A DNA stretch of 63,011 nt, counting the filler, from Phoronis australis (taxonomy: Eukaryota; Animalia; Phoronida): assembly GCA_002633005.1 (NCBI GenBank). It is 7 parts of 7 records of this genome, joined end to end, with 100 filler letters (N's around TTAATTAATTAA, not from the genome) between each part and the next. Parts side by side here need not be neighbours in the genome. Positions count along the whole stretch, not along the records: positions 1 to 28,285 come from NMRA01001303.1; 6 more parts are not named here. One strand, written 5' to 3'. Positions within the stretch are counted from its first letter, which is position 1. Every line of letters begins with the position of its first letter. Position numbers and translations under genes: made by a program. The notes under the pieces are model-generated. The model saw only the letters and a program-made list of their open reading frames with translations, was not told where the DNA came from and did no database searches. This document shows, piece by piece, positions 1,373-58,454 of this stretch.

Positions 1373-2130
1373 AAGTTCTCCTATCACCAGATGATAAAGC
1401 CAACGGGATTATTAGAGTCGAGCAACCTTTATTGATGCAGGCTGTGCGTGAAGAGTTTGAAGATGGAACCGTTTATTTGCATCCCCAGAGAGTGTGTTTG
1501 CAAACAGGTGTGCCCGCTTTTACTGTTCCTGTGACAATGAAAGTGGACGTCAGCGACATTTTAACACAACTGGGTGATGGCAAAGATCCGTCTACGTTCT
1601 TTATATTTAGATTATCTAATGGCGAAGTAACAGACATCACTACTCAGTGCAATGCTCAGCTTCACGGTCAAGAATTGGTTTACTACTGTCGTCATTTTTC
1701 CGAACATGTGATAGGATGGACCGAGTATTTCAGCAAAGTTTTTTCTTTTATAAGGGATTATTTGAAAGGGACATTTAGAGCTAAATTTTGCCCGTCTGCG
1801 AAAAAAGAGAAATTCGGTGTATCACTCAGCTTACTTTGTCATGAAGATGGAGCAAACTGTCCAGAACATCCATGTGAGACAGAATACCCAAGTGAATTGC
1901 ACTGCCAGCAGGAAATTATGTTTTTGGCTCAAATTAATTGCAAACGTGAAGAAGTAGAGAAGAGATCAGACCCGATGAAAGTTGATAGAGAAATATGTAA
2001 ACAGACAGGCATGCGCATTGACGAGTGGCAGAGTGTTGATGACCGGGAGGTTGGAGACGTGGTTGTTATGAAGGTGTACCAACTGTCAAAAGAAAACAAG
2101 GCTGTCCTCCTACGTTCAAGGAAAGTGCAA
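1373..2130 (+). CDS. Exon A of a PIDD1-like ZU5-UPA-DED protein (ZU5 with HFS motif plus UPA-like region); upstream exons not resolved
   Basis: Acceptor ctcttttcag (AG 1371-1372, phase 1); donor CAA|gtgagt after 2130 (phase 0). Translation includes PQRVCLQTGVPAFTVPVTMKV...VTDITTQCNAQLHGQELVYYCRHFSEHVIGW, matching the pattern of the second PIDD1 ZU5 domain as recalled (F-x-x-PV-T ... W-x-DIT-x-Q ... HFS). Confidence 0.85.
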
Positions 2131-3032
2131 GTGAGTATAAAATACAAATAATCAAATACATGCTCACCTTCAACGCATTGTTTACTTGTTGCTATGGAAC
2201 AATGTACTCACCTAAAGGGGAACATTCTGTTGTCAGACTTCTGGGACGTCCCAAAATGACCACTCAGCTGATTTAGAATGTCTTTACTTCTACCAAAACA
2301 CCTTTTTGAAAGATAACAAACATATTTCCACTTAACAGTTGATGGGTTTCAGCCCAATTTCAGTCTTGTTTGACCTGCATGTATGGGTGTCCCTTATACG
2401 GGCCGTATTTATGTATTTCGTGCCTGTTTTTGCGCTCCCTTCTTTTGGCATACATGTATGAGTTTCTTTTTAAAGTCATGACAGATAATTTCGACGGGTA
2501 GACTTATTAANNNNNNNNNNNNNNNNNNNNNNNNNNNNNNNNNNNNNNNNNNNNNNNNNNNNNNNNNNNNNNNNNNNNNNNNNNNNNNNNNNNNNNNNNN
2601 NNNNNNNNNNNNNNNNNNNNNNNNNNNNNNNNNNNNNNNNNNNNNNNNNNNNNNNNNNNNNNNNNNNNNNNNNNNNNNNNNNNNNNNNNNNNNNNNNNNN
2701 NNNNNNNNNNNNNNNNNNNNNNNNNNNNNNNNNNNNNNNNNNNNNNNNNNNNNNNNNNNNNNNNNNNNNNNNNNNNNAGACAAGGTTATGATTGACAAAT
2801 CGGGAGTCGCAACGGAACATACTCCCAGTCGGAAGGACAAGCAAACAACCTCTTAAACCGACCCAGTTTCGGCCGCGAATTCCATATCCACGTTCACTCA
2901 AACGGAGACGAACCCCCAACTCCAAAAGCGCAGCGAGACTGTCTAGCTGTTCTGCTTCAAGTTCAATTCATTGTTCACGCTTGCTATCTGTTATTTATGA
3001 GCACTTTTTTAAGTATTACTGTTACAACTTCA

Positions 3033-4292
3033 AACTAGAAAGATTATTGTCACGGCGTGACAATAACGGACTCTGCGCGTGCATATTACATGAATTATGG
3101 GAAGTTACTGACAGCATCCCGTTTACCAATATGAAAAGGAATTCTTTAAAATTGTAGGAGAAATTACATATTAATTTTTTGATGACCTTTCCACTAATTG
3201 ACCTCTTCCGGTGCATTATGAGCCCCGATGAGAGAATAATTGTAATCTCGATTAAAAGTGTGCTTAATGCTAAAAATCACCGATGTTTTACTTTAAGCAC
3301 ATCAGAATACAAGATGAATGAATTGGTCAAACTTTCAGAAGAAAAATGCACCTAATGACCCCATGGGTGCACCAAATGACCTGAAAATTTAGAATTCAAA
3401 CTCAATCGCACTTAGTAATCAGATACCTAATTCTGAAGTCTCTAGCTCAAAACTTTAGTTTGCACCCAATGACCTTTGACCTATTTTTTCTGATTGGTTA
3501 GGCCTAGTGCAAAGTAAAGTAGGGTCTTCACTTGGCATGTTGACTTACACCAGTGTGGTGAAATTGAAAAGAATTCCTTGAAAAACATAAGAGATATAAC
3601 ATGTTGAACGTTACATGACGTTTGCACTAATTGACCTTATCCGGTGCATTTTAAGCATCTTTAGGAGAATTATTGCAAAGCCCATGGAAAATGTGTTTAA
3701 CGCTGAGAATCACAGTTGTCTAACGGTTGACACATCAGAATACTTGCTGATTGAAAAGGCCAAATTTTCAGAAAAAAAATGCACCTAATGACCCCATGTT
3801 TGCACTAAATGACCTGAAACTTTGGATTCCGATTTGATTTACCTGTGACAATCAGACCTGTCAATTTGAAGCGTCTAGCTCAAAATTTCAGTTTGCACCT
3901 AATGACCTTTGACCTATTTCACCTGATTGGATGACCCGATTACTTAGAAAAGTATTTTTTTAAATTGTTATGTTGACCTTTACCTGTGCACCGAATTTGA
4001 AACGATAGCTTCAAAACTGTAGGAGGAGTAGCATTTTGAAAATTATATGACATTTGCACCAAACGACCTCTTCCTGTGCAATATGGAATATGATTATATA
4101 ACAAATCAAAATTTATACACTGTCAAAAGTCATATGCTGAATTTAAAGACCGTACCTGCACCCAATTTGGAGTTATTAAGCCTCAAAGTTGGTCGGAAGA
4201 AGAATAAGAAGAATAAGGAGAAGAAGAATAAGAATAAAATCGAAGAAAACCCAGGAACAACAGTACTCTGCGCTTACACGCGCAGAGTAATA
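3033..4292 (-). mobile_element. Non-autonomous Helentron-associated element (HINE/DINE-1-like)
   Basis: 12-bp subterminal inverted repeats (actctgcgcgtg 3070-3081 / cacgcgcagagt 4277-4288); terminal hairpin 4264-4289; (AAGAAT)n microsatellite ~4197-4237; ~430-bp internal tandem units; 3' stem-loop ttattgtcac-ggc-gtgacaataa 3044-3066, then CTAG on the minus strand in T-rich flanks. Confidence 0.75.
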
Positions 4293-5312
4293 ATATTTAA
4301 TAGATTCCAATTTGAATATTTGCTAAGAATGATGAATGTAATTTACAATTGCTATGTTTAAAATAAGCCTATTAACAAAAGTAAGGTATCAGTTTTAGCA
4401 AACCAAGTGCACGGGGCACGCAATAATAAAATGGCCACAAGGTTGAGCAGAAAACCTCAAATTCGTTCGACTATGAAAAAGGAGAAATTACTCTGGAAAA
4501 ACGGGTGACGGCTTTTTACATTCCCAGCATAATTTGCTAAGAGTGCAAGGGGTTGACGTAAGTGATTTAGTGATAAAACATTAAACGTGGAAGACTGAAC
4601 TACGAACGCAAAATTGACCTCAATCGTGCAGGCCTATTTACTTTTTTCTCTATGCCATTCCTGTTCGCGCCAACCCGTCGTTTGAACTTTTTTAAAACTC
4701 AAGACTCCTCTCAGTAATTGCCAAAAACCTCTCTCACTCTTTTTAGAGTTAACGATAAAAAAGCCGTTTGTGCATAGATTGGTGATCCTGAAAATCAATG
4801 TGTCGGGCTTACACGTAAATTTCATCAGAAGAAAATAGTGTTTAGTGTTGATTAGGTATTCAAAAACTAGTTTTGCATGAAATTATTAGCCTTAAAATAC
4901 CCCGACATGGGCGGAACTGAATTGTAGACGATTCTAGTTTGAACATCACTTTTTGCAAGCTCAAATCCGAAAAGACGATTTAAAGTACCTGCACTACATT
5001 TGCAGCCATTGGAAATTTCCGATCATAAATGTTGTCTGTTTCTGGCGCTGAACATTATGTGGTTTTTAACAAAAACTCTTCTTGTGTTTCGCTTGGTGAT
5101 GGGTCTTTCAACGGTCACACGTGGTATTAGTCTCTGGTAACTGTGGCATACTTTTGCTGAACGCTTTGTTACCAATAAATATAGAACATACATGCAACAC
5201 GTGTACTATCTCTTTCCTTGTTTACACCTGCCATGTGATTTAACTTTGTGTTTTAACTTTTTACACTTTACAAGACGTCCTGGAAGTACGTAGCTCGGTG
5301 AGCCTTCAAAGG

Positions 5313-5423
5313 CCTGCAAACAATCTTATATAAATAACTCTTTTTCAGAAGTTCACCAACAAGCCAACAGGATCGAGCAACCTTTATTAAAGCAAGATGA
5401 CCGTGAAGAGTTTAGAGTTGGAG
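5313..5423 (+). pseudogene. Decayed partial duplicate of the acceptor and 5' end of exon A
   Basis: aataactctttttcagaagtt...aagccaacaggat..cgagcaacctttatt...cgtgaagagttt aligns to ~1337-1470 with several deletions. Confidence 0.75.
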
Positions 5424-5957
5424 TGGCAATGAGCCAAATCGGTCAAGTCCAGTTTGCTCGAAGCGTTAGTATTATATTCATAGTTCCCTAACCATTTTCT
5501 TTAAAACTGTCATAAAATGGCCAATTTTGAATCCAAGTTTGGAATTGGTTGCATGAGAGCCGTCAAACTGACGATGACATTACTTATATTACGGGAAAAA
5601 TTTTCCATCTCAGGGCCTACAGGTCTGATTATCGTACATGTATATAGTGATTGTTGGAGCAAAACAAAACAAGATCGGGGGCTTTACTCTTTTATTTGTC
5701 AGTATAATAAGTAGTAGATGACGTAATAGGTCAACTGAAATATCGCAAAAAATATGTTTGTTTAAGTTCACACGTAGCGTAATGCTACACCATGTGCATA
5801 TACAGTAACGAATTCGAGGACAACGCCCTGGAAAATGATGACGGGCAAAGGGTACAATGAAACACAGATAATGTTTTTGCTTGCAAGGCAGAGTTGTCGC
5901 CAACGTGAAATCACTATTTAACAACAACTGAATGTTAGCTGGGTTCTATATTTCCAG

Positions 5958-6018
5958 ATTGAAAAAGACACGACTGCTGCATCCACGTCAAAATGTGCTT
6001 ATCCTTCAGAAGAACAAA
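5958..6018 (+). CDS. Exon B (linker) of the ZU5-UPA-DED gene
   Basis: tttccag|ATT...CAAA|gtaagt; 61 nt, phase 0 to 1, IEKDTTAASTSKCAYPSEEQ. Bridges exon A (phase 0) and exon C (phase 1) exactly. Confidence 0.7.
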
Positions 6019-7554
6019 GTAAGTAATCGAGTCTAAATAGATAATATCATGCAGACTGTACGATTTTGTGAAGAAAAGTATGAATTACTGACGGAATAAG
6101 TGAACAAGACTAGGATTTCTTAAAATTGTGAAGAATGATTTTTATGCATGTAAACATGAACTGTGTTATTCACGTACAATCAAAAACTTTTGGCTCGTAT
6201 TGCAAGAGAATTGAAAGCATATCATGTACATGTAATACTTAGCATGTCGCGATGTCTTATGTTACCTCGCGTATTTGCGATTTTCTTGAGTCTACCGAAC
6301 GCACGCCAGGTCTACGACACTCCCGTTTGGCTTGCAAGTCTAAAGTCGACATTTGGAGGCATGCGCGTTGATGGTGACAGGGGCTGTGTTCCAAGTGCAA
6401 AGACGACTAATGCTGATGCGATCACGTACATTGTTTATAATAAATGACGGTGTCTTGTGAACCTGCTTTATCATCTTACATGTACGTTTTCGTGTGGTCT
6501 CTGAGTCTGCGTATCGCAGGCCAAGATCCAAATGAAAAGAGCAAGATATTGCAATAGCTTGCAAAATGCATATGATACATGTACATAGGAGGTTGTTTCG
6601 CGAGTATTATTACAAGCATATGCGGGTAAAATAGTTCCAGCGAAAGTACCGGTTAACTCATCAACATTAAATAGAAAAAGGGTTGGAAGTACTCATGCTA
6701 AATTTATTATTTGTGATAAAACATGTTGCGACTTCAGCCAAAGTTGAACAGTTTTATAGACAATTGATTAATTTTTAACAGGCATGAAATTTAAACTTGT
6801 AAAATGTATTTAATGAGACCGTGGAGAATCTACGTCTTGGAAAATGATAACGTCAGAGCTGTTCAAGTTCAACATTGCTAGAAACTCTAGGGAATATTGT
6901 CTTATTGACTACTTTTGTATCGGTTACACACTTCAAATCCCTCTACCCTAGTAGCATATATATACAAATACACGCACACATACATATACATGTACATGTA
7001 TGTGTTTGCATAATTCATTGTGCAGTGGCGGGTCGACAATTTTAGTAAGGGGGTGTTTAGGATTTGCGCTTTGCGCACGTAGCGCGGAGGAAGGTCGGGA
7101 GATTCCCTTCCAGCGTAAGACAACTTTTTTGTTTTTTTAACCAAATAGCGCAATTTGCGTACATCCTGGCGAAGTTTGTTGCAGTTAACATATCTCTGGA
7201 GTTTTTCCTGAGACGATTTAAAGCTTTCTCGATTTTGTCTCATGAACTCGGTTCAGAAGTTCAGTAAAAACATATTTGTGCTCACCAAGTGTATGAGTCA
7301 GGCCACAATCAAAATTTGAGATGAAGCAACTGTCTACATAGGCACATTGATCTTTCGCATACGAAAAGTAGTATACAAATATGTGTGTTATGTACATGTG
7401 TATGCACGGGTTTAGGTAATTACCAAATATTCAAGAGCATAAGGAGCACCAACGGTCACGTAAAAGCACAACATTTGAATATAATATGTATACAATAGAA
7501 GGTCATATGGAATTGTTGCTATGAGATACATGGTCATCTGGTATTGTAGCCACC

Positions 7555-7904
7555 TAATACATGATCATGTTGTACTGTGTCTTTGTAATACATGATCATG
7601 TTGTACTGTGTCTTTGTAATACATGATCATGTTGTACTGTGTCTTTGTAATACATGATCATGTTGTATTGTAACCATGTAATACATGATCATGTTGTACT
7701 GTGTCTTTGTAATACATGATCATGTTGTATTGTAACCATGTAATACATGATCATGTTGTACTGTGTCTTTGTAATACATGATAATGTTGTATTGTAACCA
7801 TGTAATACATGATCATGTTGTACTGTGTCTTTGTAATACATGATCATGCTGTATTGTGGCGTTATAATACATGATCATGTTGTAGTGTGGCTTTATAATA
7901 CATG
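7555..7904. repeat. 31-bp minisatellite, ~11 copies
   Basis: Unit taatacatgatcatgttgtactgtgtctttg, with a variant ending ttgtaaccatg. Confidence 0.95.
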
Positions 7905-8857
7905 GTAAACATATTGATGTGGGAATGAAATATCCATTAGTGGTTATCAAAATATTGAATTCTGCAAATGTTCTCTCTTCTTACAAAATACATGTTTTAG
8001 TCAGTATCATGAAAATCTCACCATTAGGGATAGGTTTCCAAGAACAGTGTACTCGAATTATCATGTAGTGGTAACTAATCAATGATCAAATATGTCTATG
8101 ACGTAGAGGTACTAGCTCACTTGCAAGTTTCTCGTTAGTCAATGTGACATCACCGGAAGGGGGCAAAACCCGCCATATTGCTCTTGTTTTGTCCCGAGTC
8201 TTTGCTACACACGCTAAATCTTACTGGAGTTTTATGGTGAATTTCATGCTTAAAACGTAAACACAACTTAAGAGACAGTAGATGAATCTTGGAATAACTG
8301 TGAGTGGACGAAGAAAATGTGAACTTGTTCTGTTGCGGGAAGCTGTGAAATGACTGAAATTGGAACTCAACCCGGACTAGGCATGAATGGCGCAGGCATA
8401 CAGGGGCGACAGTGTATGTCCATGAGTTATTCACTTCAAAATGCAGCAAATAAAATCAAATGAAATATGCATGTGTGCTCATGGAGTAATAATTAACACA
8501 AACCCTGACTCTGGACATAGTTTAGTCTACAAATAACTTGAACATATCCATGGAAACCTCGAGGTTCGCTCGAGTTTCTCACTTGGCGCCATTTTGAGGA
8601 AGTTACGTGAAATCACGCTTGTTGACAAACAAAAAGTCCAAAAGAAACAACTCTAACAAATTTCACTTGATATTTTCTCATGCTATTTTGCAAGTGTCAC
8701 GCTCCAGATCACGCGCCAAGTCTCGCCCTTCGCTCAGTCTCGCATTACCCTTTGCCTCATACTCACCTGACTCAGCTGAAATACTTTGTGGTTATCTCTC
8801 GCGCGGTCAAAGTTACCAGTGGAGTTAGAATTTTTCTCCAAAGTCACCTGATTTCCC

Positions 8858-9008
8858 GTAGTTATGCTTCATCAAAGATATGTTTAGAAGCAGAAAGAAT
8901 AGAATCACTAAAGAAAGTAAGCGCCTTGTTAAGTGATAATTTTAGGTGTAGTATGTATTTTTGACGAGGTGAAAACTGATTTCGCCTACCGCCCGTTTAA
9001 AATACACT
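8858..9008. repeat. Dispersed repeat fragment (inverted copy at ~32831-32985)
   Basis: atgcttcatcaaagatatg...gtgaaaact..atttcgcctaccgcccgtttaaa is reverse-complement similar to 32831-32985. Confidence 0.7.
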
Positions 9009-10567
9009 TGACGAAATTAATATCGAACGCAATAGAACGTATTGTAGTGCGAATCTGAATTTCATTTGCTATAATAGCGATGCTTATTTGGCATTTTTCG
9101 AACTAAACGGCTAAAAACTCAAAGAAAATAGCAGAATACACTCTGCTACCATTTTGGGCAAATGGCCAAACGGCAACCTTTTGCACCACTTTTATATAAA
9201 TTATAGTCTATTGGTACGTTTTGAGCACATTGAATTGCAAAAATTTTGTTATTCGGAAAAAAAATTATTTCATGAACCACTATTAGTGAAGCATACTTAA
9301 AGTAATGTGAAAGGGCATTTATTTATTAAAAAAGTAAAAACTTGTGCCCTTATTTCGGTCACGTAACCATGTCTTTTGAATTAACTGTAGCAAAAGAATA
9401 CACATTCTTTGCAACACTATTATTCTTAAAACCTGGCAAAATTCCGTTTAAATTTGGTGTTCAAGATGGATAGCCTCAAGCTATGTTACAGTTTTCTAAG
9501 TCACCCCTTCGTGTTCATTTCAACCAACCTGTGAGTTTTTCACCGAAGCATTAAAAGTCGTATACGCTAAATTGTAAATTCTTAAAACAATTCTTCACAC
9601 GAGTTTTTGAGATCAATGGATACAGCATGATATGTGAAAGGTTCTTATGTCGCAAACATTCTACTCTGTTTCATATGTATTGCGACTCCCGTTTCACGCT
9701 AAGTTGATGAAGAAAGTATATCAACTTACATATCTATAGGAAACTTTTCTCCTTTTAACATAACACAAGACTGGGTCCATAAGCTTATGCATGTATATGC
9801 CGCCTTCCAAGAAGAGTCAGGGCACTTGTCGGTGGCTGCACTTCTGGTAAAATAGAATAGATGAATATTTGGACAACAAACAAGAATCAAAATATGAACC
9901 AAAAACACCAAAAACACAATACCAACGGTTATTCAATCAAGTAGTATCAATGCGTTTTCAAAAATATTATAGCTGTAATTCTGCAATCGTTCCAAACGAT
10001 ATGTTCAGGTTATTTCAGTCACAGAAATAGACGAGCATGGTCGATGATTAACTAATGTAACCAAATGTACAACATCGTGTTCTTTAGACTTGCACTTTAA
10101 TAGATCACAGAGGAAAACGTTATAACAAGTTACACGTTGCCTAAATTGGTGTTCTCTATTTCCATCTGTTTACTTGGAATAAGCGTTTGAGATGTTCTTT
10201 CAGTGAAAATCTAAAGTTACATGGCTATCAAAAACAATATGTCTCGTGAGTTAACTGCCACTGACATCGCAAGTTTTTGCAAAAATACCATCAAACGGAT
10301 AACACACACTTGAAACAGTCGAAATATGTTTAATTATCATGACCAAGCAACTGCCTCAGACGCATCCGTGTAATGCTGAATTTAACGGATTGCATTCATG
10401 CTTCATACTCGTGGATTAGTTAAACTTAAGTGCGACGTGAAGCCACCTGTGTTCAGAAAACCTCTTTTCAATACATGTTAGTGGTGTTGTGACTGCTGGT
10501 TTTGTTAAGAGTAGAATAAAAAGTTTTAAAACATTACGGGCTTGTACCTAAATCATATCATGCCTAG

Positions 10568-10763
10568 GACGGCGTTGGATAATGTGCAAACTAGTGAAAC
10601 AGACCACCGATGCTGTTAACATAGCTTATAAATGTGTCAATTTATTTGCAGAAGTACCGGATAGAGCGCGGGAACTTCATCGTGAGCTGTTACGTGAGGT
10701 TGATGATAGTCTCATTCAGAGTGATTTTAAAAGGCTAAAGGCAGAGTGTAAAGACTGGATAAA
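10568..10763 (+). CDS. Exon C of the ZU5-UPA-DED gene, N-terminal half of the DED
   Basis: cctag|GA...ATAAA|gtaaga; phase 1 to 2. ELHRELLREVDDSLIQSDFKRLKAECKDWIK matches DED helices 1-2 (consensus f/yR.lL.el.e.L..edl..LKflc.d.i). Confidence 0.8.
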
Positions 10764-11299
10764 GTAAGAAAAAAAAACATTGTGTGTTTAGGAACTATCC
10801 ATCTACTGCACAGTGACTACAAACAATTATGAGCGTATTAAGCAACCCTTTAAAGTTACCGTTACGTCTGCTTCAGGCGGTCGAGAACCACCAATTTCAA
10901 AATGAAATAAAATGCGTATTAAGCAGTGGATTCAGAAATAAAAACACCGAGAGTTTCCTCTCCGATAACAGTCTTAAACCAGTTTTGTTTAACCATCAAT
11001 GAAATCGTCTGCAACTGTCGATAACCAGTCAAGTTACATCCGGGAAGTGTAATGATGGCAACAACAGTGACATGAAATGCCACGTCATCACCATAGCTTC
11101 AGAGCTCTAAATAACCAGCAACATACGGGTCCCGAATGCCCAATGACTCCTTCTTGCATAGTATTTTTCGAAGGTTCTTTACAGATTATACCAAGTGGTT
11201 TAGTTTTTTGATCGTTACTGACAACGTACCTATAGACGTTTTTTTTTTTTAAGGGGTGATATTCTCTCAGTATTTTAATAGTTACGTGGTTAGGAGTTT

Positions 11300-13780
11300 C
11301 CAATTGTTGCGTTCCAGTGGTTACACTCTGATTTTTCCAAATAAACGTTGCTGCAAAAGGAACTTACATGTACCTTCAAACTGAAGAAGGCGGGCACGTA
11401 AAGTTGTAGCCGTTATTTCCTCTTTGTTTCACTGTGACCAGAAGTTTTCAATTTAAATGTCAAATATCTCTCCTTGTACATTTCATAGACGAAGCAATTG
11501 AGCTGGAAGTGGTTTCCAACCTCTTTGTAAACTGAAGATACCTGTTCCTTTGTTAAACAGTAGCGATGTTTTGTCAGGTTTTTTGTGCTAATTGGAATAA
11601 CTTCTATATTGGACTCATACGTAGACTCTTGCGACTGACTATCACCTCAGACAAAAGCAACATCTATGGGCACGGTGACAGAAACAGTCGCCAGGCTCAT
11701 TCAGTCAATATTAACTGCAAAGAGCCTGTAATAAATTATTGTACCTTAATCTAAAGAGTCACTGGCCATTCAAGACCAGTGTGCATAGCTAAGTGACCCT
11801 GCAGCTATGACGAGGACCTCTTTAGTATTTCGTAACATTTTTGTTGTACTCATTTCACTTCATTGTTGGATCCGATCACTCATGTTCCAAAGGCAAATTT
11901 GGCCATTTTTCGAGGCTCCAACATAGCCTGCACACCAGTGAGCGTCGTATGGCAAGTTTTGTTTTCTCAACACTTTGTTCTCTTACACCAGTCTGCATAT
12001 TTGATGTGTCAGAAATATGTCTTTGACTGTCATTTTTCTACTTTTTAAAAAATCTTGAGTGGTAGATAGTCCAAGTTATACATTGTCAATGAAAACATTT
12101 CTAAATAGTTTAATGAGTTGTTAGAGTGGCCTATTAAGTCATCAGTAAATGGTGGAAGATCAAAGCTAATGTGTGTTGGTTGCAAACGGGAGGGGCATCA
12201 TCCGCCTACCGTAATCAAGTGGCAGGGACGTGACAATGTTTATGAAACATGCGTAATTGAACCTGCAAACACATCCAAAATCTTTTTAGAACCTTTGGAT
12301 GGTGGTTGTTTCCACCACTGACCCACCTGATGCCATCAGCTATCACTAATTGCCGATTCGATTTTGCCCTCTTTCATCGTTACCGACGTCTTCTGGTTAC
12401 ACGTATGACCTTGATCTAGATTAGAGTTCCCCCATCAACAGGTCCAATTAAACCGTTCAAGTAATAAGGTGTGACGTCATTGTCACTTCCTTCCTTTAGG
12501 CTGATGATATACCTTCCGGTTGCACCCATCACATGCGACCTTTGATTTTCGCCACCTATTGGCCTTTTTACCTCATTTCGAGTCTGCTTGTTGGCGTACG
12601 TCTCCAAAATCCCTGCTCTAAGGTTCATTGCGAAAACTGGTCCATGTTTTGCTACTCAGAAGGTCACACATAACGGTGTCTTTCGGAAAGCTCCAATTAC
12701 TGAGTCACCCCCAAGTTGCGGTTGCAGTTTTCCCTTGGTTTGCCGTTGTTTCGGATCATAAATGTCTTGTAGGAAGTTTTCGAATTTGTTTTTCTATTTC
12801 TAAGAACGTAACAACCGATAACAATTATATCCTGAGGGTATCACTTACCGTTGTGATCTCTATTTCATGCTTTTTACATTTACTCCCCATACTGGGAGCT
12901 CTTGGAAAGGTTTTCATGAAGCATAGAGACTTACTTTTTATTAGAGAGACCAGATTAACACCTTTTAAGATATATTGGACTCATTGTATGCCACATAGTG
13001 ACCATATTTATACCATAAGACTGTGTGTTCAGCCCCTTATCTATTGGATAAACCACTGTAAAGATATTTCTGAAAATTGGTATAAGTGTTCCTATTAGGT
13101 CCGGCTGGAATTTAAACTGGGTCCGGCTGATATGGTGCCCTCTCACGACAATTTCAACATTAAAACTGTGCCGTCCAATACTAGTTTCCTGGTGGATCAT
13201 CACAAAAGTTGGCATGGGCATCTACTGGAGAGAGTACACGTGACGTGGAATTTGGGTCAAATCTCACTACTGCCGGGTTCGCTAGCTATACTTGTTTTCT
13301 ATGAATATACATTGAAATCTACATGTACCTAGTTCTTTGATGGGTGTTCCTGAAATCGTGCAACTAAATTGTCATTTCGTATACAACAACACAATGTCTG
13401 TTTCAGATGGATTTGACCCTTCTTCCCCCCTTGTATCGTTTCCGCATTTTTGTGTGGACTGCTTCCCTTTACCAAATTTATTGCAGGATCATAAAAATGG
13501 CAGGACGTGTTCCTGACTTGCTTTGCACGTGAATTTACTAGGTTTGCAGCTCTATTTAGTGAGAGTGTTTGAAATAATGACATGCATGGTATGCAAAGCT
13601 CACACTTGGTGCAGATTAACGTTCCACGTTGCTCTTATTTTATCCGTTACTTCCGGAATACCTTTGACACATGTCACATGTCCCAATCTTGCTACAAAAT
13701 ATCGTATTGGCCCGGGTGTAAACGTTCTTCTCGCCTATGAACTCGATTTTTCTCATTTCCTTTAGTGTGAATTCGAAATT
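11300..13780 (-). mobile_element. Highly decayed Gypsy (Mag-like) LTR retrotransposon internal region, in the intron that splits the DED
   Basis: Minus-strand remnants in gag-protease order: EKNVYTRANTIF (gag KNv.yeR..F-like), CIRNDNLVARF, degenerate knuckle YKYGHYVAY, protease-like FPKDT and VMGATG. Many stops; boundaries approximate. Confidence 0.45.
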
Positions 13781-14325
13781 ACTTTCATTTTTTGTGCAGT
13801 ATTTTCTGTGAAAATTAGGTTTTAGTACAAGTTCGCCTATAACGGACAATAGATTCAAATAATGACATCGACTTTAATTTTGAGATTTCGAGTTTAGACT
13901 CAAATTTTTAAACCCCAGTGATAGTTTCATGAAGTGCAATCTCAGGTTAGACAGATACCCACCTTCGCCATTGCGTATAATATTAGACCATTTTCTTGCA
14001 TAAGGTGGACTAGAAAATTACAAAAGTGCGGTTGCGATGGATATTGATTACAAAATTTAGACTTCGGAGTCTACTCACAACCTAGGGTGGGTATTATAAC
14101 GTAAATTAAATAATAAGGAAACCGTTCTTGTCAACATTAAATTGATTCTCAATCTCACAGTCGTCATAGCGCGCTGAATTAAGTAGACGTACGTAACTGA
14201 AATTTAAGTTTAAATGTTCTAACGAACCGTTCCTAATCAGACTTACAAGTACATGTACATGTATATGGGCAGTCTCCAGGCTTGATTTTCGATTGACGTG
14301 GTCGTGAATGGTTTGTTGTTTTCAG

Positions 14326-14498
14326 ACCAGCACAACTAGAGAAAATAACAGACACTTTGGAACTTCTAGACCAGTTCGAGAAGCAAGAGATTATTAAATG
14401 TGGGGAGTATAGAAACTTAATCGATATGCTTGGCGTGCTCAATTTGAACCAACTGAAGGGTCGAGTGGAAGGACTGTCACGTGCTATAAATGCACTAG
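14326..14498 (+). CDS. Exon D of the ZU5-UPA-DED gene, C-terminal half of the DED
   Basis: ttgttttcag|A...CTAG|gtatga; phase 2 to 1. PAQLEKITDTLELLDQFEKQEIIKCGEYRNLIDMLGVLNLNQL matches DED helices 3-6 (klEki...ldlf..LEk...i......L.elL..i). Confidence 0.85.
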
Positions 14499-14797
14499 GT
14501 ATGAGGCAAGGGTTTGAAATATTTTCATATATTGGCGTCTTGTGAGTAGCTATGGTTGTCTCTTATTTGTTTGAAAAGAATCAATGTAGGGTGTGAGTAT
14601 CTCATTTAAATGCAAATAAACGTACTTTCCATTGCCAGAATTGCTATTTTTTAAGAAACATAAAACCGAGTATGCATCGTGTTGTATAGTACAATACGTT
14701 TTATGGATGAGATGTACCGCAACATGTTAAGCTTGTAATTGACAAAGGTTGTGCAATATTTGTTCCATTTTGTTAATTGCATTTTTTAAATTTTCAG

Positions 14798-14841
14798 GTG
14801 TGGATCTCCCAGCCACTGACGCCAGTCCCAACTTGACCTAG
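14798..14841 (+). CDS. Terminal coding exon E of the ZU5-UPA-DED gene
   Basis: Strong acceptor ttttaaattttcag|GT; phase 1; (G)VDLPATDASPNLT then TAG at 14839-14841. Confidence 0.7.
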
Positions 14842-15219
14842 CGTCCGCTGTGTTGGTCTTCATTGGTCTGATGGAATACAACCGTACAGGGGGCGATCAC
14901 TTTCGGCCGTGACACCAAGCAGCCCTTTGACAATGTGATCCAATACGTTCACATCATTGATATTTAACTACACATGTCCGTGAATCTTCGTCTGAAATTA
15001 TGCATGTATAAACTGTTCCGTGTCTAAGAGAACAGTTTGGCATCTGGAATTAAAGCAGTTGCTTTTACCTTTGGTTGATTTTGACAGCGAGGTGACAATC
15101 AGTATTGTTATTTATTCAGTTTCATTTTAGTTTATGCGCTTAGTGGGGGCGTCGCTTTTGGTATTTAAAACGTAGACTCGATAAACGTACTTCTTCATCG
15201 ATTGAAAGGTTCCTTGGAG

Positions 15220-15315
15220 TTAAGGTGGCCCTGAACAGTTGGACTGCGGCCGCGGCCAGTTTCAACTCCCAAATTATTAAAATCTGGGGTTTGGCCAAGC
15301 TCGGCTGGCATTTCT
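15220..15315. repeat. Dispersed repeat fragment containing a NotI site (inverted copy at ~59788-59880)
   Basis: ctgcggccgcggccagtttcaactcccaaatt...tggggtttggccaag is reverse-complement similar to cttggcctaccccaaaattt...gggagtgcaaattggccgcggccgcag. Confidence 0.65.
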
Positions 15316-18300
15316 CTTTTTTACGAGGGTCCACTCGGCAAGTGTGAAAGCCAAAACAAGTTATATACAATGCGACCTACTGGAGTTACAAATGCAGTTC
15401 TCGGAAAATGGTAATCGTCTCGTCTGCTGTTCAGTGAGTGGAAGATTCAACCTCTTTTGGGAGAGTGCGAGGAACCGACATATATGTAATTTTTTCAGTA
15501 AATAGAAATTGAGAAAAACACAAGTTAACCAAAAAGTATCTCAGAGTTACATGCAGTATATTGTGCAGCAGTATAGAACAGTAAGTAAACAATAAACATG
15601 TGAAATTATGTCCATTCCCGTCAACGTACTCTCTCCTTAGGTTTAGAAGAACAGGGCGATTGGTGACAGCTTGTGGAGATATTTCCGTGATAAAGATAGC
15701 ACGCTCACAATTAGCTATCTCAGATCACTTTCTGTTTTCAACCACCAGACTTGAGCAGACTTTCGTGTAGGTGTGTCTTATGGGAAAGTCATTTAGCCAT
15801 GTACAATGATTTCGAATGGTAAAAAAGCCACAGGTCTGATGGATTTTGGGTCGTGGGTTTTGGGGGTCGAGGGTGTTGTGAAGAATCCCTCAAATATTCA
15901 TATGATTTAACAATATTTGTATTGTAATATTATTCAGTCATAATACATGTAAATGACCAACTTTACCTTCTTCCAGCCTCTATTTCATCTCTGGAAATTT
16001 ACCTTGGGACGCACTCATTTACGTTCGACCTTTATGTCAAAAATGAATGTTACTTTATTGGTACTAAACTCGTACACTGTATCCGAAGCACGCTTTACGG
16101 GTTGATTGAGAGATTGGATACGACATAAGTATGCGGCTTCAACAACATGACGTCAGATGGATCTAACAATGCTAGAAATATGTGTCAGTAAGAAGTATAC
16201 AGCGCGTGTAAGATTCAGTCAAATGCCTAACATATACGCGCATAATTAATAGCAAAGAATGTTTCTTCAAGAAGAATGCTTGGTGATTTTATTTTGTCTT
16301 TAAACGTCCTTTTTACGAATTCCCATAATATACCCAACTCTCAGTCCAAAATTTATCGATTATAAGGTAGGTTGGATCCATGCAGATACCCTAGGTGACT
16401 TGTGAACAGTTTGGCTAAACGTTGCAGATTGCAAACTGCACCATTGTTCAAACACCCAGGCTGTCAGCAAGCGCTAGCGGTTAACAATACAACTAACATG
16501 TCGCCTTTTAAAATATTTCCAGATTTGTCACTAGCATAACAATTGGCATTTCTTAGTTTTCAAACGCTAAAATTTCAGTCACAATTAGATGTTTTTTGTA
16601 ATAAGCTCAGCGTGACATCAGGTCACTGATCAGGTAGTGCTAACTTGTTCCTGTATTCTTCTGCAGAAACGGAAGGTTTGATCTTTTTAATCTACCAAAA
16701 CACAATTAAAATAAAAAAATAGTTAAGAGCAACTTGATAACCTTTATATACCAATTAAAAACTTGAGTTGTCAACTGATTTGTTGACGACGCAATGAATA
16801 TTTGGTGAGTATGACACATGTGAATCGTACATATACATGTAGTTTGTTTAAGCCAGATTGTGAACGCAAATTTCTGAGAAATAAGTTACCATCAGATTTA
16901 AGATTTCACTTGAAATTATGTAGCAGATTAATTTAGAACGTTATTTCAAAGTCAATTGCCATAATGTCCACGCTGACAAAAACAGTAAATGAATATAATT
17001 TTTGAGAGAAGAAAGGTCAAGGTTTATAAATTGCACTTAATACTTACGAGTCATTGTTATCATAACAGTGCAAATCTTTTACATGTAAGTCTCTATTTGT
17101 TTTTACATAACGGTACGTTCATAGTACAAAAACCCTCGACTTAATGAAACATTTTAATGTCTCTTAAAAACGTTGCTAAGAATTTCGATTACTGATTGAG
17201 ATGACATTCTACCCCAAATTAACTTTTAAAATGTAAGGCGGGATTGAGAGTTTTTGTTAAAAAGCAGTGGTCGTTTTCGTCTATCGCACAGTTCAATAAC
17301 ACTTGGACAATAAGAATCCAGACAGCGTATTTGAAATTGACTGAAAACTTTCAATGAAGTACACAGAGCCGTTTTCAATAACTCGTGCTCCTCAGTTCAG
17401 ATAAAAGCTATTTGCATAAATATAACACTTGTTAGAAAATAATTTGCAAGTACTCTGCTATAACCCCAGTAGATATCGATAGCGTATACTGTGCAATGTA
17501 ATTTGTTTTTACTTTGCGATGTCTAAATATTCAAACTTAACACTAACGACCGACGTCATGATGATGGGATATTTTTAATCTGTGTCTGTACGCAAACTTC
17601 ATAAAGCGGTGTCCATGCCTTTTCTTTTCATTAAATTTCACATGGGCGTGGGAAAGCATCACACCCAGTTGCTGCAAATCCTGCACGATATCAACGCGCT
17701 AACTTAAAAAGCCACTGATATCAAGAAACCAACTAAAAGTAATAACAAAAATTATGCGAGCAACATCAATACAGTGAAATGTCGAATTACTGATGTACTC
17801 CACGGAATTTGTGGACGATATACAATTTAAAGCAATGGAACATAAAATCGCACATCGTCACGGAACACCTAGTTTACAGTGTACTTGTTCTGAACGGCCG
17901 TATGCACGCAAATCCACAATTCTCACAGGATCAAAATTACGCATGCCTTCGCTTTTTGTATCATCTTTCTATGCTATGAACACCTCGTTGATGGAATGTT
18001 ATGGCGACTCTGAATGAAAGGACTTCGGGTACAAACGGAAGTGTTCTAATCACGGAGGGAGATTATATTTCAGTGACCGATTTTTACTTTTGATCGTTGA
18101 TAATAGTAAACACATTTCCAGGCTGGAACTCATGCTTTTCTGCCATATAAAAGCAAGATCTCGATTTCCAAGGGAACTAGAAACGAAGACAAGCAGTTCA
18201 TTCACACAGGTACTGAATATTGAAAAATACTTTTAGAATTTCTAAGCAATATGCTACATATCCTTGATGTGGCACTAAACCAGCCTTTGGCCATCAAATA

Positions 18301-18974
18301 CACTACTGTTGATTTAGAACTCATTTTGTTTTAAAACTGTTGTCATAGTGTGCTTTACTGGGGCATGATTCCTTTAACATAATAAAGCCCAGGCCCTGCA
18401 CCCCAGTTCACTTCAGCGATTTGCGGTTATCGCCAGGACTCTGAACTCAATCAATACCTCACTCTTCGGCTTGTAACGTTGTTTTCTTGTTTTTTTATAT
18501 TATATTCTGTTAATTACTTACTTGTTTAAATTTTAGAGTGTTGTCTGACACTGTTGTTGTTTAATGTACAGATACAAAAAGCGGACGCAGTGGTCGGATG
18601 ATGGAATTCTTCGATGCTCTTTAACTCTATCTAGCTGTTAAACTCTAAACCTGTTTAAGGGCAAACATCCAATAACTTGTAACTGTATTTACATGAATTG
18701 CGCCGTTAGCTATTTCTTTAGATCTGGATTTGTTAATGAGTACATGTAGCACTCATCACGAATTTTCATCCGACCAGTCGGCTAGGAGTATACAGTGGGA
18801 TGTCACGGATGATGGTTTCGTTGTGGAAGCGTGGCTGGACGACCTATTCCAACTGCAGCAGATGTCCGTTCCTACATGTAACATTCAGAATATAAATCCA
18901 GCTTAACACACGACACATGTTCTTACAAAGTGAACATGTATATCGCCAAGACTCCTATTCGTGTACAGTTGTCT

Positions 18975-20425
18975 GCATTGTTTTATCACCTACTCTTTTT
19001 GCACTGTTCATAAAAGATTTGGCAGCGAAATTTAAACAGTTAAATTTAGGTTCGGATAATGATTCATCTTTGTTTTATACCGATGATATATTAGTAATTG
19101 CCGAAAGCGAAGAAAATTTACAGGCTTTATGGAATATAGTTGCCGAATGGTACTCTAAATGGAGGCTAATTGCCAGTCAGGAGAAAATTACACTTCAGAT
19201 CCAAGCATACATGTATCTCTCTTAGTCTATATCCTTTTCGGTTTGGCCGATTAGATCTAGACTATGTGCCCATTTACAAATATTTAGGAATAATTTTAAA
19301 TGAACATTTAACGTTTTCTCAAACTGCTAAAAGTCAGAATCTGCCACGAAAGCTTCCGGCGCTTTAATTAAAACTTTTAAAAGAATAAAAATATGAGGTA
19401 CACAACATTCATTACATTATTCAATGCATGTGTTGTGTCTGGTAGTGATTATTGTGTAGGTCTCTGGGGTGGCTCTAGTTTACAGCCTTATAATGTCATG
19501 CACAATAGAGCCGCGATATTTTGCTTGGGCGTTAACATATTTGCTTCTAATCATGCTCTTAAATGTTATGGGTGGGAATTCCCCAGTGTTCGGCGGAAAA
19601 TTGGGCTTCTGAGAAGGTGGAATTGTGTTATTAATTTCGAGTAAGAAAAACTAACATATCGAATGTTTTGGTGGGACTACACTGCCTGAAGTAATAATCG
19701 TTAATCTGAAGTTTTGAGGAATTGGCAATTTCGGATTTTTTTTCGTAACTTTCTCGTACATTCAGTTAATCTCTCTCGCTATGAGAATAGTTTGCATTAT
19801 TTGGCTTGTAATAGGTGGCTGTTTGATTGCCGTTTGAAACCAAAGTTAAGAACTTATGTTTTGTTGAATACTGTTTTAAGTTCATTTAGACTCAACAGGA
19901 CCTAGTAGGTCAATTCTTGCTCAAAATAGAACAGGATCCCCCCAGCTATTGGTTAAGGTTGGGCGTTTTTGTTCTCTGGATTTTCATGGTAGAAGTAGTT
20001 GTCTTTGTCAAACTGGTTAAGTTGAAACTGAAGTACTCTTTGTGTTTGAGTGTCCGTTTTTCTTATATGCCTGAAACACCTTTTGAACTCAAATTGAGAT
20101 TCAATATCCTTGGTTTTGCGCAGAAAGCTGTGAAGGTAAATTAATAACAGTTATGCAAAATGTGGTATCAGTAAACTTCAGTTTTTATCAAAAATATTTT
20201 TGAAATCAGGATTTTTTATATGATCACTTTTATCATTGTGTTCTCTTTTTGGTCCCCTTGCAATGTGTGCACACTTGTTTGTTTCTCTTTTGTTTTTTCA
20301 TGTGTCTAAAGTGACTAATAAGCCCCGTATAGGACTGGGTGTTCTTGTTTTGTTACGTATGAATTGTTTAAATCTACTTGAACACATGTGACTCTAAAAA
20401 AAAATTACTTATACTTACTTATTTA
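18975..20425 (+). mobile_element. 5'-truncated, decayed non-LTR retrotransposon (CR1/L2-group RT, C-terminal region and 3' tail)
   Basis: LSPTLFALFIKDL, FYTDDILVIAESEENLQ, YKYLGIILNEHLTF, KPKLRTY spread across frameshifted ORFs; short (TACT)n-like tail near 20405-20425. Confidence 0.85.
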
Positions 20426-21699
20426 GTGTAACAATAAGTTCACATGAACTTCAACGTCTTACCACCAGTCGATCTATGTGCTAGGGTTGCAGAATGGAGA
20501 TTTCAATAAGCAATACTTCACCAGTGACCATCCCGGCTCTATTGCACACTGACATGCTCGTGAAAATGAAGTGAACATTGATCTACAACCTGCGGCGTGG
20601 CAGGCAACGTTAAAACCCTCACATGTTTGTGTGTCACCATATGTACCGGCATTTTACATTGCGCATCCAACGAATGTCAAAATGTGGCTCAATATAAGTC
20701 AGACTGAGTAAATCATTGTCTCCTCATATTCACGGGTACATTGTCAGTACAATGTACCAATTCAGTGTCCTGTTGGTTTGAAAGCTGCAGAATTTATTGC
20801 TTGCCGTCTCAGGACATTGGCCAAAACGAGGCAAAGGGGCTACCGGCTTTTTTGTTCATTTTGAAAGAAAGTGATTTCCTGAAACTGAAGAAAAATGTTA
20901 ATTTTTTAATGTTTATTATGAATCATTCAGTACAATAAAAATATTTTTCAACAGAAATCTCCAAGAGGCATTGTATCTGGGCTAAATACCTACAGATAAT
21001 AACAATTCTTACTTACAACTACACAAATTAAAAAAAATATGTTAAGATGAGATGTAGTTGTGAAAGTTAATAAATAGTTTTTATACTCGTATACAATTTT
21101 ATCAACTCAAATAAAACTATTTAATATTAAAAAGAAGTTTTGATAGTACAAAGAAAAGACATAAACAAATGATATGACACGTCAAGATGACAATGTGACA
21201 GTAAATCGGGACAATTACAAAGGCGGATTTAGAGTCCCAGAACAGGCCCCCCCCTCCTCCAGGGGCACGGTCAAACATAATGAAAAGTTTTTGTCATGCC
21301 GATTGTACAGCTTCAACAGGAGTTGTACTCTAAATCATGCAGTTGCTCCCCCTAACGGCATCCCCTATCCGCTATTCTTTAACATACATGTACACCCAGT
21401 ACAGAAGCCTCAAATTAAGCATGATTGATAATAGTTTGAAAAATTCAGACGCAATGAATAACAATAGACAATACTGTGGCTCGTGTAAGCATAAACACTT
21501 GACACACAGAAGAATGTCATAGGCATGGGCCTTATGCATCTATTATTAAGGTAATATTAACCATGAGGGTAACGCCACCAATTCACAATGCTTTCCATGG
21601 GGGCTCCTAGACATTGGCATAGGTCTGTCCAATTACATGTATATATGCAAGCATCAACACTTGACAGACTGAAGACAATATCATAGGGATAGGCCTGTA

Positions 21700-21930
21700 C
21701 AAGTATATGTGCAACCATCAACATTTGACACACATAAGACAATGTCATTGGCACAGGCATTTACAAGTATGTTATCCAGCAGCTGCTTTAATATGCAGTC
21801 GATGAACACTTTGAAGAGAGTAGGCGAAGTGGCTCCAACTTGAGGAGCATCTCTAGTGAGACGAGCATTCAGGCTAGATATGGTTTTCTCAAGCTTATCT
21901 GTTGCTGTCTGATTGCTCAACGAGTGCATA
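21700..21930 (-). mobile_element. Decayed non-LTR RT fragment
   Basis: PQVGATSPTLFKVFID...ACANDIVL = degenerate PQGxxLSPxLF...YADD. Confidence 0.65.
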
Positions 21931-26950: not shown

Positions 26951-28384
26951 GAGCAGTTTTTCATGTTTGACACGTTCTCCGCGTTTTTTTTTTCTATTTC
27001 TTTGCCTTTTTTACTTGGATTATACTTCAGGAATGAAGGCAAACTCCCCTCCCGACCTCCCCCCATTAGGTGCTATGCGCCTCTAATCGTGCTTTGCACA
27101 AATGTTTTCGGACAAAATGTTGGGCCCCTTGTGATATCCAAGATATGCCACTGCCATAGCTTACCCCCAAACGTTAATTAAGTAGGCATTGGACAATACA
27201 ATAGCCACATTACAAACTCATTTTAGCGCCAAAAAATGAGATGGCTCTTTTACTAATCGAAGTCTAAGACGAATTGACTTTCACCGTGTCTCCATCGTAT
27301 TGAATCGGCGATGACTGTCCGTTTAATTTAGTGCAAAATACGTGGAAGATCAAGGAAACACATTACATGTAGTTGTTCATTTCATGTCAATTTGTAGTAA
27401 AATTGATCAAAACCATTACTTTTATACTTTTTTATTTAATTATTTAGCAAACATTCCAACACGGGCCAACATGGAAATCTCCGGGAGTGTGACTGGGGCC
27501 GTCGAAACAGCCGGAAAAAAGTCTTCGTCCGAATTATTATCAGGCAAATTCGCAATGTTTATTATAAACTGTCGTTTGCTAGATAAAAAACTTTGATGTC
27601 GGGAAATTTGCATTCATGTCTTCTTGAAGCGGAAGGCGTGAACGCTGAGTGATTCAGATAGGGGCCGCTGTCGAGGGTCTCTCCTATATTGGAATCGGAG
27701 ACAAAAGACCGTTTAATTTGGTGCAAAATACGTTTAAACGTTACAGCACATTAGCCTGACCTTTTTCTACACAGCAATTATAATAAAATTCATTAATTTT
27801 CAAAATAATTCGTCATGAAATCCTGCAACCAGTGTTCGCCTCGATTTTGACTCGGTCAACCTCAAAAGATTGAAAATTTTACACACGTTCTGAGTATCTG
27901 TAAACAAAAGCTATGAAATAAAGTCTAGATTGTATGAAAACATGCCGAATATAAGGATTTGTAATCAATTGGACGTTTTGAATTCAATCAAAAATATATT
28001 CCGATATGGGTCGACAGTGTCTGAATTCTGTTAGGCCTACGGAACGACCCAAATCAGAATATACCGATTTGGGTCGGAACGGTAACACGAAACGTCGAAG
28101 TGCACACTGCAGATGTTAGTTGTAGCAAGTCAGATAGCTGTTTGAAGACTATCGCCAAAATACAGCTTGGCCTACGTGACACTGTGAATTGAGCTCAGTT
28201 AGACAACGAAATTTCATACAGGCCTGGTATGAGTACTGTTAGTCACCTCGTCGTGAAACTTATACATGTATCGTAGAGCCAACGANNNNNNNNNNNNNNN
28301 NNNNNNNNNNNNNNNNNNNNNNNNNNNNNTTAATTAATTAANNNNNNNNNNNNNNNNNNNNNNNNNNNNNNNNNNNNNNNNNNN

Positions 28385-29010
28385 NTACCTAGTCTGTATC
28401 TTCAAAGGTCCTCAACGGATTTTCATAACATTTGGAATATAGGCATCTTTTAGTGAGATGACGGTATCCTCCTGTTTTCGAATGGAATCGAGGTATTTTG
28501 TACCACCTAGTGGCCATTTTTGCGGTTTTTGAGTCCACTCTCTGTCAACCAAACCATTCTAAAGATGATTTTCAAAATTGGCGTATATGTTCTCAGTTTG
28601 AAGAGGATGGTTAATGATGACTACTTTGAATACTGTGGCGCCTCTTAGTGGTAGTTTTATTTTGTTTAGCGCCCATAGCTGTATCTCCTAAACCCATTGC
28701 AGGATCTCTGTTAAATTTAATAAGTGTATTTATATGAAGCTAACAACAGACGTCGATGACCTTTAGGTGAATGCATCGAATGGTGTGCCCCCTAGTGGCA
28801 ATTTAATTTTTTTCCATTTTCCTTTCTCTGGAGATCCTTGGCAGATTTTTATGAAATTTTTAAATAGCTTTCTATTAAAGAAGCAGTGGCATGTTCCCGT
28901 TTTCGGGTGAAATGAACGTTTTTGCGCCATTTAGTGGCCATTTTAAGATACAAATAAACAACCCTAGAAGCATTCGTGGGCACATTTCAACGCTTCGTAT
29001 TGCTCTTATT
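28385..29010 (+). mobile_element. HINE-like repeat family 2, copy 1 (truncated by gap)
   Basis: Internal ~140-bp periodicity; end cattcgtgggcacatttcaac; reverse-complement similar to 58455-59316. Confidence 0.7.
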
Positions 29011-34260: not shown

Positions 34261-34360
34261 NNNNNNNNNNNNNNNNNNNNNNNNNNNNNNNNNNNNNNNN
34301 NNNNTTAATTAATTAANNNNNNNNNNNNNNNNNNNNNNNNNNNNNNNNNNNNNNNNNNNN

Positions 34361-34446
34361 GCGGCCATTGTCATATGTGGCGGCCATTGTCATATGTGGC
34401 GGCCATTGTCATATGTGGCGGCCATTGTCATATGTGGCGGCCATTG
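34361..34446. repeat. 19-bp tandem repeat, 4.5 copies, abutting a gap
   Basis: Unit gcggccattgtcatatgtg. Confidence 0.95.
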
Positions 34447-42962: not shown

Positions 42963-43098
42963 NNNNNNNNNNNNNNNNNNNNNNNNNNNNNNNNNNNNNN
43001 NNNNNNTTAATTAATTAANNNNNNNNNNNNNNNNNNNNNNNNNNNNNNNNNNNNNNNNNNNNCAATTTTGGCCACCAACCATACAAGACTGGTCTTAC

Positions 43099-58380: not shown

Positions 58381-58454
58381 TGTATCAACCTCACTCACTC
58401 CATCACATCTGATCCATGTACGGTTGACTTCAAAGTTACCCTGACAGTTTGCAG

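Follow-up and report, generated by a model that had tools for sequence, protein, structure and literature searches.

Here we analysed a 63,011-nt stretch of DNA from Phoronis australis (GCA_002633005.1; hereafter the window), and in its part from NMRA01001303.1 (positions 1 to 28,285) we found a real, expressed gene for which exon order, strand, phases, three RNA joints (A-A', A'-B and C-D) and an HFS motif are established. Our explanation, offered tentatively and with limited confidence, is that this is one expressed, polymorphic, domain-shuffled gene, that its exon-A isoform would encode a predicted ZU5-UPA module followed by a predicted death effector domain (DED), and that the mini-exon A' likely diverts most of its transcripts from this form. 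A ZU5-UPA-DED protein is at best one isoform of the gene; the fused chain is possible and unproven in RNA. Both its domains and the presence of spliceosomal introns suggest an animal, probably an invertebrate.

Exon chain and transcripts of the gene

Five exons, A to E, lie in order on the plus strand. All five are preceded by AG and the first four are followed by GT in the window sequence, and when joined in phases 0/1/2/1 they give 409 codons with no stop until the TAG at 14839-14841. On the level of DNA this bears out the preliminary description of the locus, which had proposed five GT-AG exons with these phases and an open frame of about 409 aa. The features of the locus are the following:

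1373 to 2130, plus strand: exon A, 252 codons, phase 1 in and 0 out, with most of the predicted ZU5 and the predicted UPA; donor at 2130 in 18 reads
1693 to 1701, plus strand: HFS tripeptide (residues 107-109) where ZU5 ends, a predicted site of autoproteolysis
2511 to 2777, no strand: assembly gap of 267 N between exon A and all later exons, which may hide an exon or a further A' copy
5349 to 5464, plus strand: exon A', 116 nt, partial duplicate of the exon A acceptor and first codons, with joints 2130-5349 and 5464-5958
5958 to 6018, plus strand: exon B, 61 nt, a 20-codon linker, phase 0 in and 1 out; acceptor in 30+9 reads
10568 to 10763, plus strand: exon C, a linker followed from about 10678 by one third of the predicted DED; donor 10763 in 4 reads
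14326 to 14498, plus strand: exon D, with the remaining two thirds of the predicted DED, which reach to about 14482; acceptor in 4 reads
14798 to 14841, plus strand: coding part of exon E, 13 residues and stop; its bin has sense-strand RNA cover
14842 to 15600, plus strand: probable 3' untranslated region (3' UTR), AATAAA at 15591; sense depth 3.6x and 4.4x in 14851-15400

Since exon A lacks a start codon of its own and its frame comes in at phase 1, the gene begins upstream; no exon feeding it was found in the window, and no RNA joint into 1373 from within the window is among those listed. Its frame is not a chance one, because no N-free stop-free frame of the window is longer than the one in which it lies (262 aa, compared with 158 aa for the runner-up). 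The DNA of the five exons and of A' contains neither a stop nor a frameshift, and the in-frame chain of A to E on one strand supports the reading as a single gene. The acceptor of exon C is T-poor, and a T-richer in-frame alternative would start the exon at 10652; an in-frame ATG is present at 10582. The window has a GC content of 38% and is rich in repeats. When 300 of its roughly 317 N-free frames of at least 55 aa were compared with Pfam, only reverse-transcriptase fragments, the DED match and chance matches were obtained and no other recognisable gene was seen, so that a rival partner exon with a convincing non-transposon domain is not evident.

Transcripts were assessed in three raw-read libraries (X1, X2 and X3) and one contig set (X4) of the same species label, with about 18-19% of each library read. 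RNA was placed at 90% identity, and that of X1 and X2 a second time at 96%. On the exons the first mates map to the minus strand; for a stranded library of the usual type this indicates plus-strand RNA. Sense depths in X1/X2, estimated from bins at the 90% placement on the assumption that all sense depth in a bin is exonic, were 19/12 for exon A, 41/19 for A', 44/19 for B, 3/2 for C, 2.5/8 for D and E together and 3.6/4.4 for the 3' UTR, while X3 scarcely covers the gene (1-2x on exon A) and the X4 contigs give no useful exon cover. Fixed differences from the assembly show that the runs stem from other individuals or haplotypes. Among 11 variants listed for exon A (the variant table has at least 67 further rows) ten were tested and eight of these change a residue. 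No coding indel is among the RNA variants listed, and none of them touches HFS.

Joints with GT..AG ends were found between A and A' (2130-5349, 13+5 reads in X1+X2) and between C and D (10763-14326, 1+3 reads), and A' is joined to B (5464-5958) by 30+9 reads at 90% and by 7+2 at 96%. In both runs the shorter side of the A'-B reads reaches 62 nt, one more than the 61-nt exon B, which would fit a following exon whose first letter is G, the case for C at 10568. The joints A-B (2130-5958), B-C (6018-10568) and D-E (14498-14798) were neither among the 15 of 30 joints listed at 90% nor among the nine of nine at 96%. As the 96% filter removes most exon B reads, which are mostly less than 96% alike, the lack of these joints is weak evidence and does not prove them absent. 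Of the four junctions that had been proposed, RNA thus recovered C-D (4 reads), and the five-exon transcript model has to be amended by exon A', which had gone unnoticed. Exon A is, at least in part, spliced elsewhere than had been assumed: reads link its donor to A', a join that is out of frame when direct, and A-B is not among the joints listed. This corresponds in part to the outcome that the preliminary description had itself named as refuting it.

Exon A' is about 70% identical to 1337-1467, the exon A acceptor and first codons. Compared with exon A it carries deletions of 12 and 9 nt, and the frame of exon A is kept. Entered in phase 1 it offers 38 open codons and leaves in phase 0, the same as exon A; with equal phases in and out, either A or A' can precede B. 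The kept frame and the shared phases support the single-gene reading. Entered directly from A it is out of frame, with a stop at 5388-5390. Counted from the first full codon, the computed products are 409 aa for A-B-C-D-E (381 with the acceptor at 10652), 195 aa for A'-B-C-D-E and 265 aa for A-A'.

Further RNA cover was observed close to exon A. Upstream of its acceptor (551-1372) sense RNA reaches about 3-5x in X1, with no joint listed; intron retention, an alternative start or repeats might account for it. In the intron after exon A, 2790-4300 is a repeat with an internal duplication (3132-3648 and 3565-4080, 72%) and no Pfam match. It shows very high RNA depth, mostly on the opposite strand and up to about 400x in X3, and with a likeness of mostly 90-95% these reads probably derive from further copies of the repeat.

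Predicted domains

Exon A very probably encodes a ZU5-UPA module, as judged from sequence features. In the ESM Atlas its first match reached 0.96, with 183 of 256 features in common and with ZU5 on 47% of the members of that cluster, and all ten of the best family matches belong to the ZU5/FIIND clan. Its neighbours include UNC5B-like clusters and clusters of death domain-containing protein 1 (DTHD1), together with FIIND clusters at 0.92; PIDD is not named among the clusters listed. Residues 112-252 alone matched a UPA-bearing cluster at 0.87, a lead only, and the recognition value of exon A (2140, below the 2300 mark) weakens the ZU5/UPA placement. One ZU5-like and one UPA-like region are seen, with the upstream exon unseen, compared with two ZU5 in PIDD1. 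Going by the ZU5 layout as we take it to be, the first strands of the domain are absent from exon A and would sit on an upstream exon. The HFS tripeptide is placed where ZU5 ends, about 145 residues before the end of the exon, which leaves room for UPA; HFS or SFS arises anywhere in 6% of shuffled exon A sequences. Together, the ESM Atlas likeness and an HFS with room for UPA behind it support our explanation.

Searches for relatives of exon A by sequence gave no match: no Pfam family at E<=1, FIIND included, and none of 1.84 billion representative proteins (phmmer, E<=0.001), PIDD1 included. Word searches confirmed 0 of 1073 candidates among longer proteins and 0 of 180 among proteins of similar length (E<=10), and 0 of 99 pattern matches were confirmed in metagenome contigs. 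Twelve matches to PDB sequences (E 0.15-2.7) were at chance level and none was a ZU5. An AlphaFold model from the single sequence without alignment (pLDDT 31.8) is evidence neither way, and Foldseek on this model was uninformative (best E 0.71). The earlier ZU5-UPA call hence stands as a lead, carried by the ESM Atlas match and HFS and left without a match by Pfam and phmmer.

The C-terminal domain of exons C and D is, with similar confidence, predicted to be a DED. Exon D matched the Pfam family DED (PF01335) with E=0.0011 over profile positions 32-81 of 82 and 19.6 bits; the gathering cut-off is 35.9 bits. Exon C alone had no Pfam match, and neither exon, scanned singly, matched the Death, CARD or PYRIN families at E<=1. 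The 31 profile positions left uncovered match in length residues 310-340, a stretch running from the end of exon C into the start of exon D, and this fit together with the spliced C-D joint supports our explanation. That the domain had been called a DED and not a death domain (DD) thus holds insofar as only DED scored, at a value below the cut-off.

Inspected by eye from the Pfam coordinates, the predicted DED has A-E near residues 331-332 instead of FL and LNQL at 378-381 instead of RxDL; both positions were placed where we take the canonical motifs to lie and were not aligned by a tool. The FL motif drives DED chains (PMC3477315). The DEDs of caspase-10 are also without RxDL (PMC4915230), so that its loss here does not exclude a DED. 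Homologue searches with exon D confirmed 0 of 44 and 0 of 598 candidates, further PDB sequence searches gave chance matches only, and AlphaFold without alignment modelled exon D as one long helix, which is evidence neither way.

Proposed function and competing explanations

How could such a gene work? In our explanation exon A would fold as ZU5-UPA, with the first strands supplied by an upstream exon, and A and A' would be alternative phase-1-in, phase-0-out partners of B. Skipping of A' would give the 409-residue ZU5-UPA-DED chain (381 residues with the other exon C acceptor), A' in place of A a 195-residue linker-DED chain that lacks the cleavage module, and A plus A' a 265-residue ZU5-UPA chain that lacks the DED. 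By analogy with NLRP1, CARD8 and PIDD1, the full chain might cleave itself at HFS between F and S, with the halves remaining associated until a trigger removes the N-terminal half. The freed UPA-DED fragment might then bind DED proteins such as FADD or caspase-8, and clustering driven by UPA could display the DEDs. Precedents exist for self-cleavage of ZU5-UPA and for assembly by UPA (PMC3210808, PMC9162469, PMC11874512), and UPA promotes the assembly of the CARDs of NLRP1 and CARD8 (PMC11874512). A DED apparently lacking FL and RxDL would more probably act at one face of a DED filament, as a seed or a cap, than lengthen it; the activating caspase-8/FADD platform that had been suggested is therefore not the sole reading.

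Several observations weigh against this explanation. The A-B and B-C joints are missing from those listed, and from B to C the depth drops from about 44x to about 3x in X1 and from 19x to 2x in X2, so most RNA containing B does not run into C as assembled; this fall would be explained by another 3' exon or by C-E alleles or paralogues that have diverged. With 13 A-A' reads at about 19x depth on exon A, the majority of exon-A transcripts in X1 seems to proceed to an A'-type acceptor, and the 267-N gap separates exon A from all later exons. Eight residue changes in ten variants fit relaxed constraint as well as diversifying selection. The DED score lies below the Pfam cut-off, and as one of 300 background frames, in a tandem repeat, outscored exon D by chance (E=2.3e-4), this score alone is not decisive. 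The ZU5-UPA call has no support from profile hidden Markov models or structure, and cleavage and binding partners are predicted only.

The A-A' joint can also be explained in other ways. A partial duplication of exon A might have split an ancestral ZU5-UPA-DED gene, so that exon-A transcripts stop in A' (giving ZU5-UPA only, or nonsense-mediated decay), the DED comes only from A'-B-C-D-E and the fusion is essentially gone. We regard this as rather unlikely, and the same holds for an incomplete assembly, in which the gap at 2511-2777 contains an unassembled exon of about 55-63 nt (3n+1) or one more copy resembling A'. An incomplete assembly would either yield a longer in-frame ZU5-UPA-linker-DED chain or make A and the DED exons neighbouring tandem paralogues, possibly with a DED-only gene from the ATG at 10582; one branch of it likewise yields a fused protein. 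A split gene is in line with the exact GT..AG ends of the joint in 13+5 reads, with the stop at 5388, with the missing A-B joint and with A-A' counts per depth (0.70 in X1, 0.42 in X2) equal to those of the direct A'-B joint (0.71, 0.48). However, the shorter side of an A-A' read extends to no more than 44 nt in X1 and 29 nt in X2, compared with 63 and 60 nt for C-D, and a uniform-read model gives P of about 2e-4 and 2e-3 for a plain direct join. Moreover, the letters between A and A' are flagged 'not known' in the read placement, exon A is intact with HFS retained, and the RNA comprises only three libraries, each read to about 18-19%. An insert of 55-61 nt would fit the short sides in X1 (P 0.37-1.0) but fits the 29-nt side in X2 poorly (P 0.007-0.06), and it predicts fewer reads, with a share of joint-showing donor reads of 0.32-0.47 against the 0.70 of X1. 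Reads with the assembly base fall in X1 from 13 at 5382 to 4 at 5395 while variant reads do not fall; A-derived reads appear to follow A' for about 44 nt and then diverge. This speaks for an incomplete assembly, as does the depth of A' and B (about 2x that of A and 2- to 18-fold that of C-E), with B reads mostly less than 96% alike. Within the assembled 2131-5348, on the other hand, there is no suitable small exon or B-like copy (one weak candidate, 4528-4561, has no listed joint), and no second copy of C or D exists in the window. A search between B and C gave one candidate (8776-8950), again with no listed joint.

Explanations that concern the nature of the gene as such appear still less probable. 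A gene from an expanded immune family that is transcribed but in decay, its protein under no selection for function, would be in keeping with the residue-changing variants (8 of 10), an out-of-frame major joint, a degenerate DED, transposon-rich introns and the lack of detectable relatives. Against it speak five exons and A' free of stops and frameshifts, the lack of a coding indel among the RNA variants listed, the frame-preserving deletions in A' and the retained HFS; we consider this very unlikely. Slightly less credible even than that is a relative of PIDD1 (LRR-ZU5-ZU5-UPA) in which the DD was replaced by a DED and a DED-PIDDosome activates caspase-8 on PIDD-type signals. HFS rather than SFS is indeed PIDD1-like, as is a ZU5-UPA followed by a death-fold domain. 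On the other side stand the absence of PIDD1 homology in the 1.84 billion representatives or the PDB and of PIDD among the ESM Atlas clusters listed, the unseen LRRs and second ZU5 (upstream exons lie outside what the window showed), the lack of FL and RxDL by eye, and a full chain that was not seen in RNA.

Sequence surroundings and known systems

Besides the exons, remnants of mobile elements and repeats were noted in the window. Reverse-transcriptase fragments lie at 18896-19222 and 38517-38786 on the plus strand (Pfam RVT_1, E=1.9e-12 and 0.0047), and 21684-22016 on the minus strand is reverse-transcriptase-like by eye, with no Pfam match. A 91-codon frame at 58186-58461 (plus strand), also with no Pfam match, resembles by eye what we take to be the integrase end of a Bel-Pao retrotransposon. 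The 128-codon Ser/Gly/Glu-rich open frame at 34877-35263 (plus strand) has no Pfam match and is perhaps a transposon N-terminus. A large inverted duplication in pieces (44301-46728 and 51661-54202, 73-86% identical) possibly represents old transposon terminal repeats, and tandem arrays occur at 7526-7904, 40665-41083, 42701-42962 and 34361-34450, with units of 62 (31), 64, 43 and 19 nt, respectively. Six identical spacers (28286-28385, 30921-31020, 34261-34360, 37903-38002, 42963-43062 and 59317-59416), each made of 44 N, a 12-nt palindromic TTAA repeat stopping all frames and 44 N, are artefacts at contig joins; none lies inside the gene.

Among known systems, PIDD1 is built as LRR-ZU5-ZU5-UPA-DD with HFS as its self-cleavage motif (PMC9162469, PMC3210808). 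The gene described here shares with it a predicted ZU5-UPA-like module with HFS and a predicted C-terminal death fold behind it, and the predicted UPA-death-fold fragment resembles PIDD1-CC. In contrast to PIDD1, it has a predicted DED for the DD, no detectable homology, no LRRs or second ZU5 in view and a mini-exon A' that reshapes its transcripts. By its predicted DED and the lack of homology it is not a member of the PIDD1 family, and the term 'PIDD-like' used before overstates the kinship, as ZU5-UPA has been shuffled onto many effectors in corals and sea urchins. The closest working model is the FIIND-CARD of NLRP1 and CARD8, in which, as predicted for the gene, a single ZU5-UPA stands before a death fold other than DD (PMC3210808, PMC11874512) and UPA promotes filaments of the freed fragment (PMC11874512). 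The gene differs from these proteins in having HFS for SFS, a predicted DED for CARD, no Pfam FIIND match and no NACHT-LRR in view; lacking SFS and CARD on the evidence of its sequence, it is not a member of this family either. As for the UNC5 and ankyrin supramodule and DTHD1, UNC5B-like and DTHD1 clusters are ESM Atlas neighbours of exon A, and the death fold could be held back by ZU5, as happens in UNC5 (PMC9162469). Unlike the ZU5-UPA-DD proteins of UNC5 and ankyrins, the gene shows no DD and no transmembrane or ankyrin part; UNC5b has Leu at the position of the cleavage Phe (PMC3210808).

ZU5-UPA has been grafted onto varied immune modules in corals, sea urchin and amphioxus, and in this respect the predicted gene is like these shuffled ZU5(-ZU5)-UPA proteins. 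Among the architectures described, with 72 of the 96 ZU5 occurrences in supplement file 4 covered, are HEPN+TRADD-N+ZU5+ZU5+UPA(+Death) in corals, Death+Death+TRADD-N+ZU5+UPA in sea urchin and ZU5+ZU5+GT4 in Acropora, and one 7154-aa amphioxus model has ZU5 and DEDs in a single chain (PMC8195603). A search for ZU5+DED architectures had been proposed; the strings UPA+DED, ZU5+DED and DED+ZU5 were found in none of 12 of the 13 supplement files of that paper, one of them covered in part. Elsewhere, DD, DED and CARD are interchanged on the NLRs and caspases of amphioxus (PMC2575513); further combinations are NACHT-ZU5 in early-branching animals (PMC12909245), LRR-ZU5-kinase in amphioxus (PMC9573974) and BIR-FIIND-CARD in Xenopus (PMC13159474). 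In the literature searched we found no published description of a ZU5-UPA-DED protein, and unannotated ZU5+DED proteins may exist. A FIIND homologue called 'Dog_ded' is listed in PMC3210808 and may be a precedent or a naming artefact. NLRP1 also goes by DEFCAP (death effector filament-forming), from which the homologue may have its name. Unlike FADD, the gene has no DD, and FL and RxDL are absent by eye. The A'-B-C-D-E isoform would approach a DED-only regulator, FADD, PEA-15 and DEDD being single-DED proteins. The gene is best understood as one of the shuffled ZU5-UPA/death-fold genes that are frequent among marine invertebrates, its UPA-DED pairing being one that we did not find in print.

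A bolder proposal, which we consider unlikely, is a death switch controlled by splicing: the ZU5-UPA-DED protein would act as a sensor whose UPA-DED nucleates caspase-8-type filaments independently of a death receptor or DD adaptor, and A' would make inhibitors, a DED-only cap and a ZU5-UPA-only sink. If this were true, the splice switch would do with a DED what the PIDDosome does with a DD and the NLRP1/CARD8 inflammasome with a CARD. A DED version would add a third death-fold output to the self-cleaving ZU5-UPA, for which DD (PIDD1) and CARD (NLRP1, CARD8) are known, and would show UPA-promoted assembly wired directly to the caspase-8/FADD arm, with the mini-exon A' supplying a simple regulatory switch. 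Shuffled ZU5-UPA modules are widespread in marine invertebrates, and the gene, for which the searches gave no relatives, may be a lineage-specific experiment.

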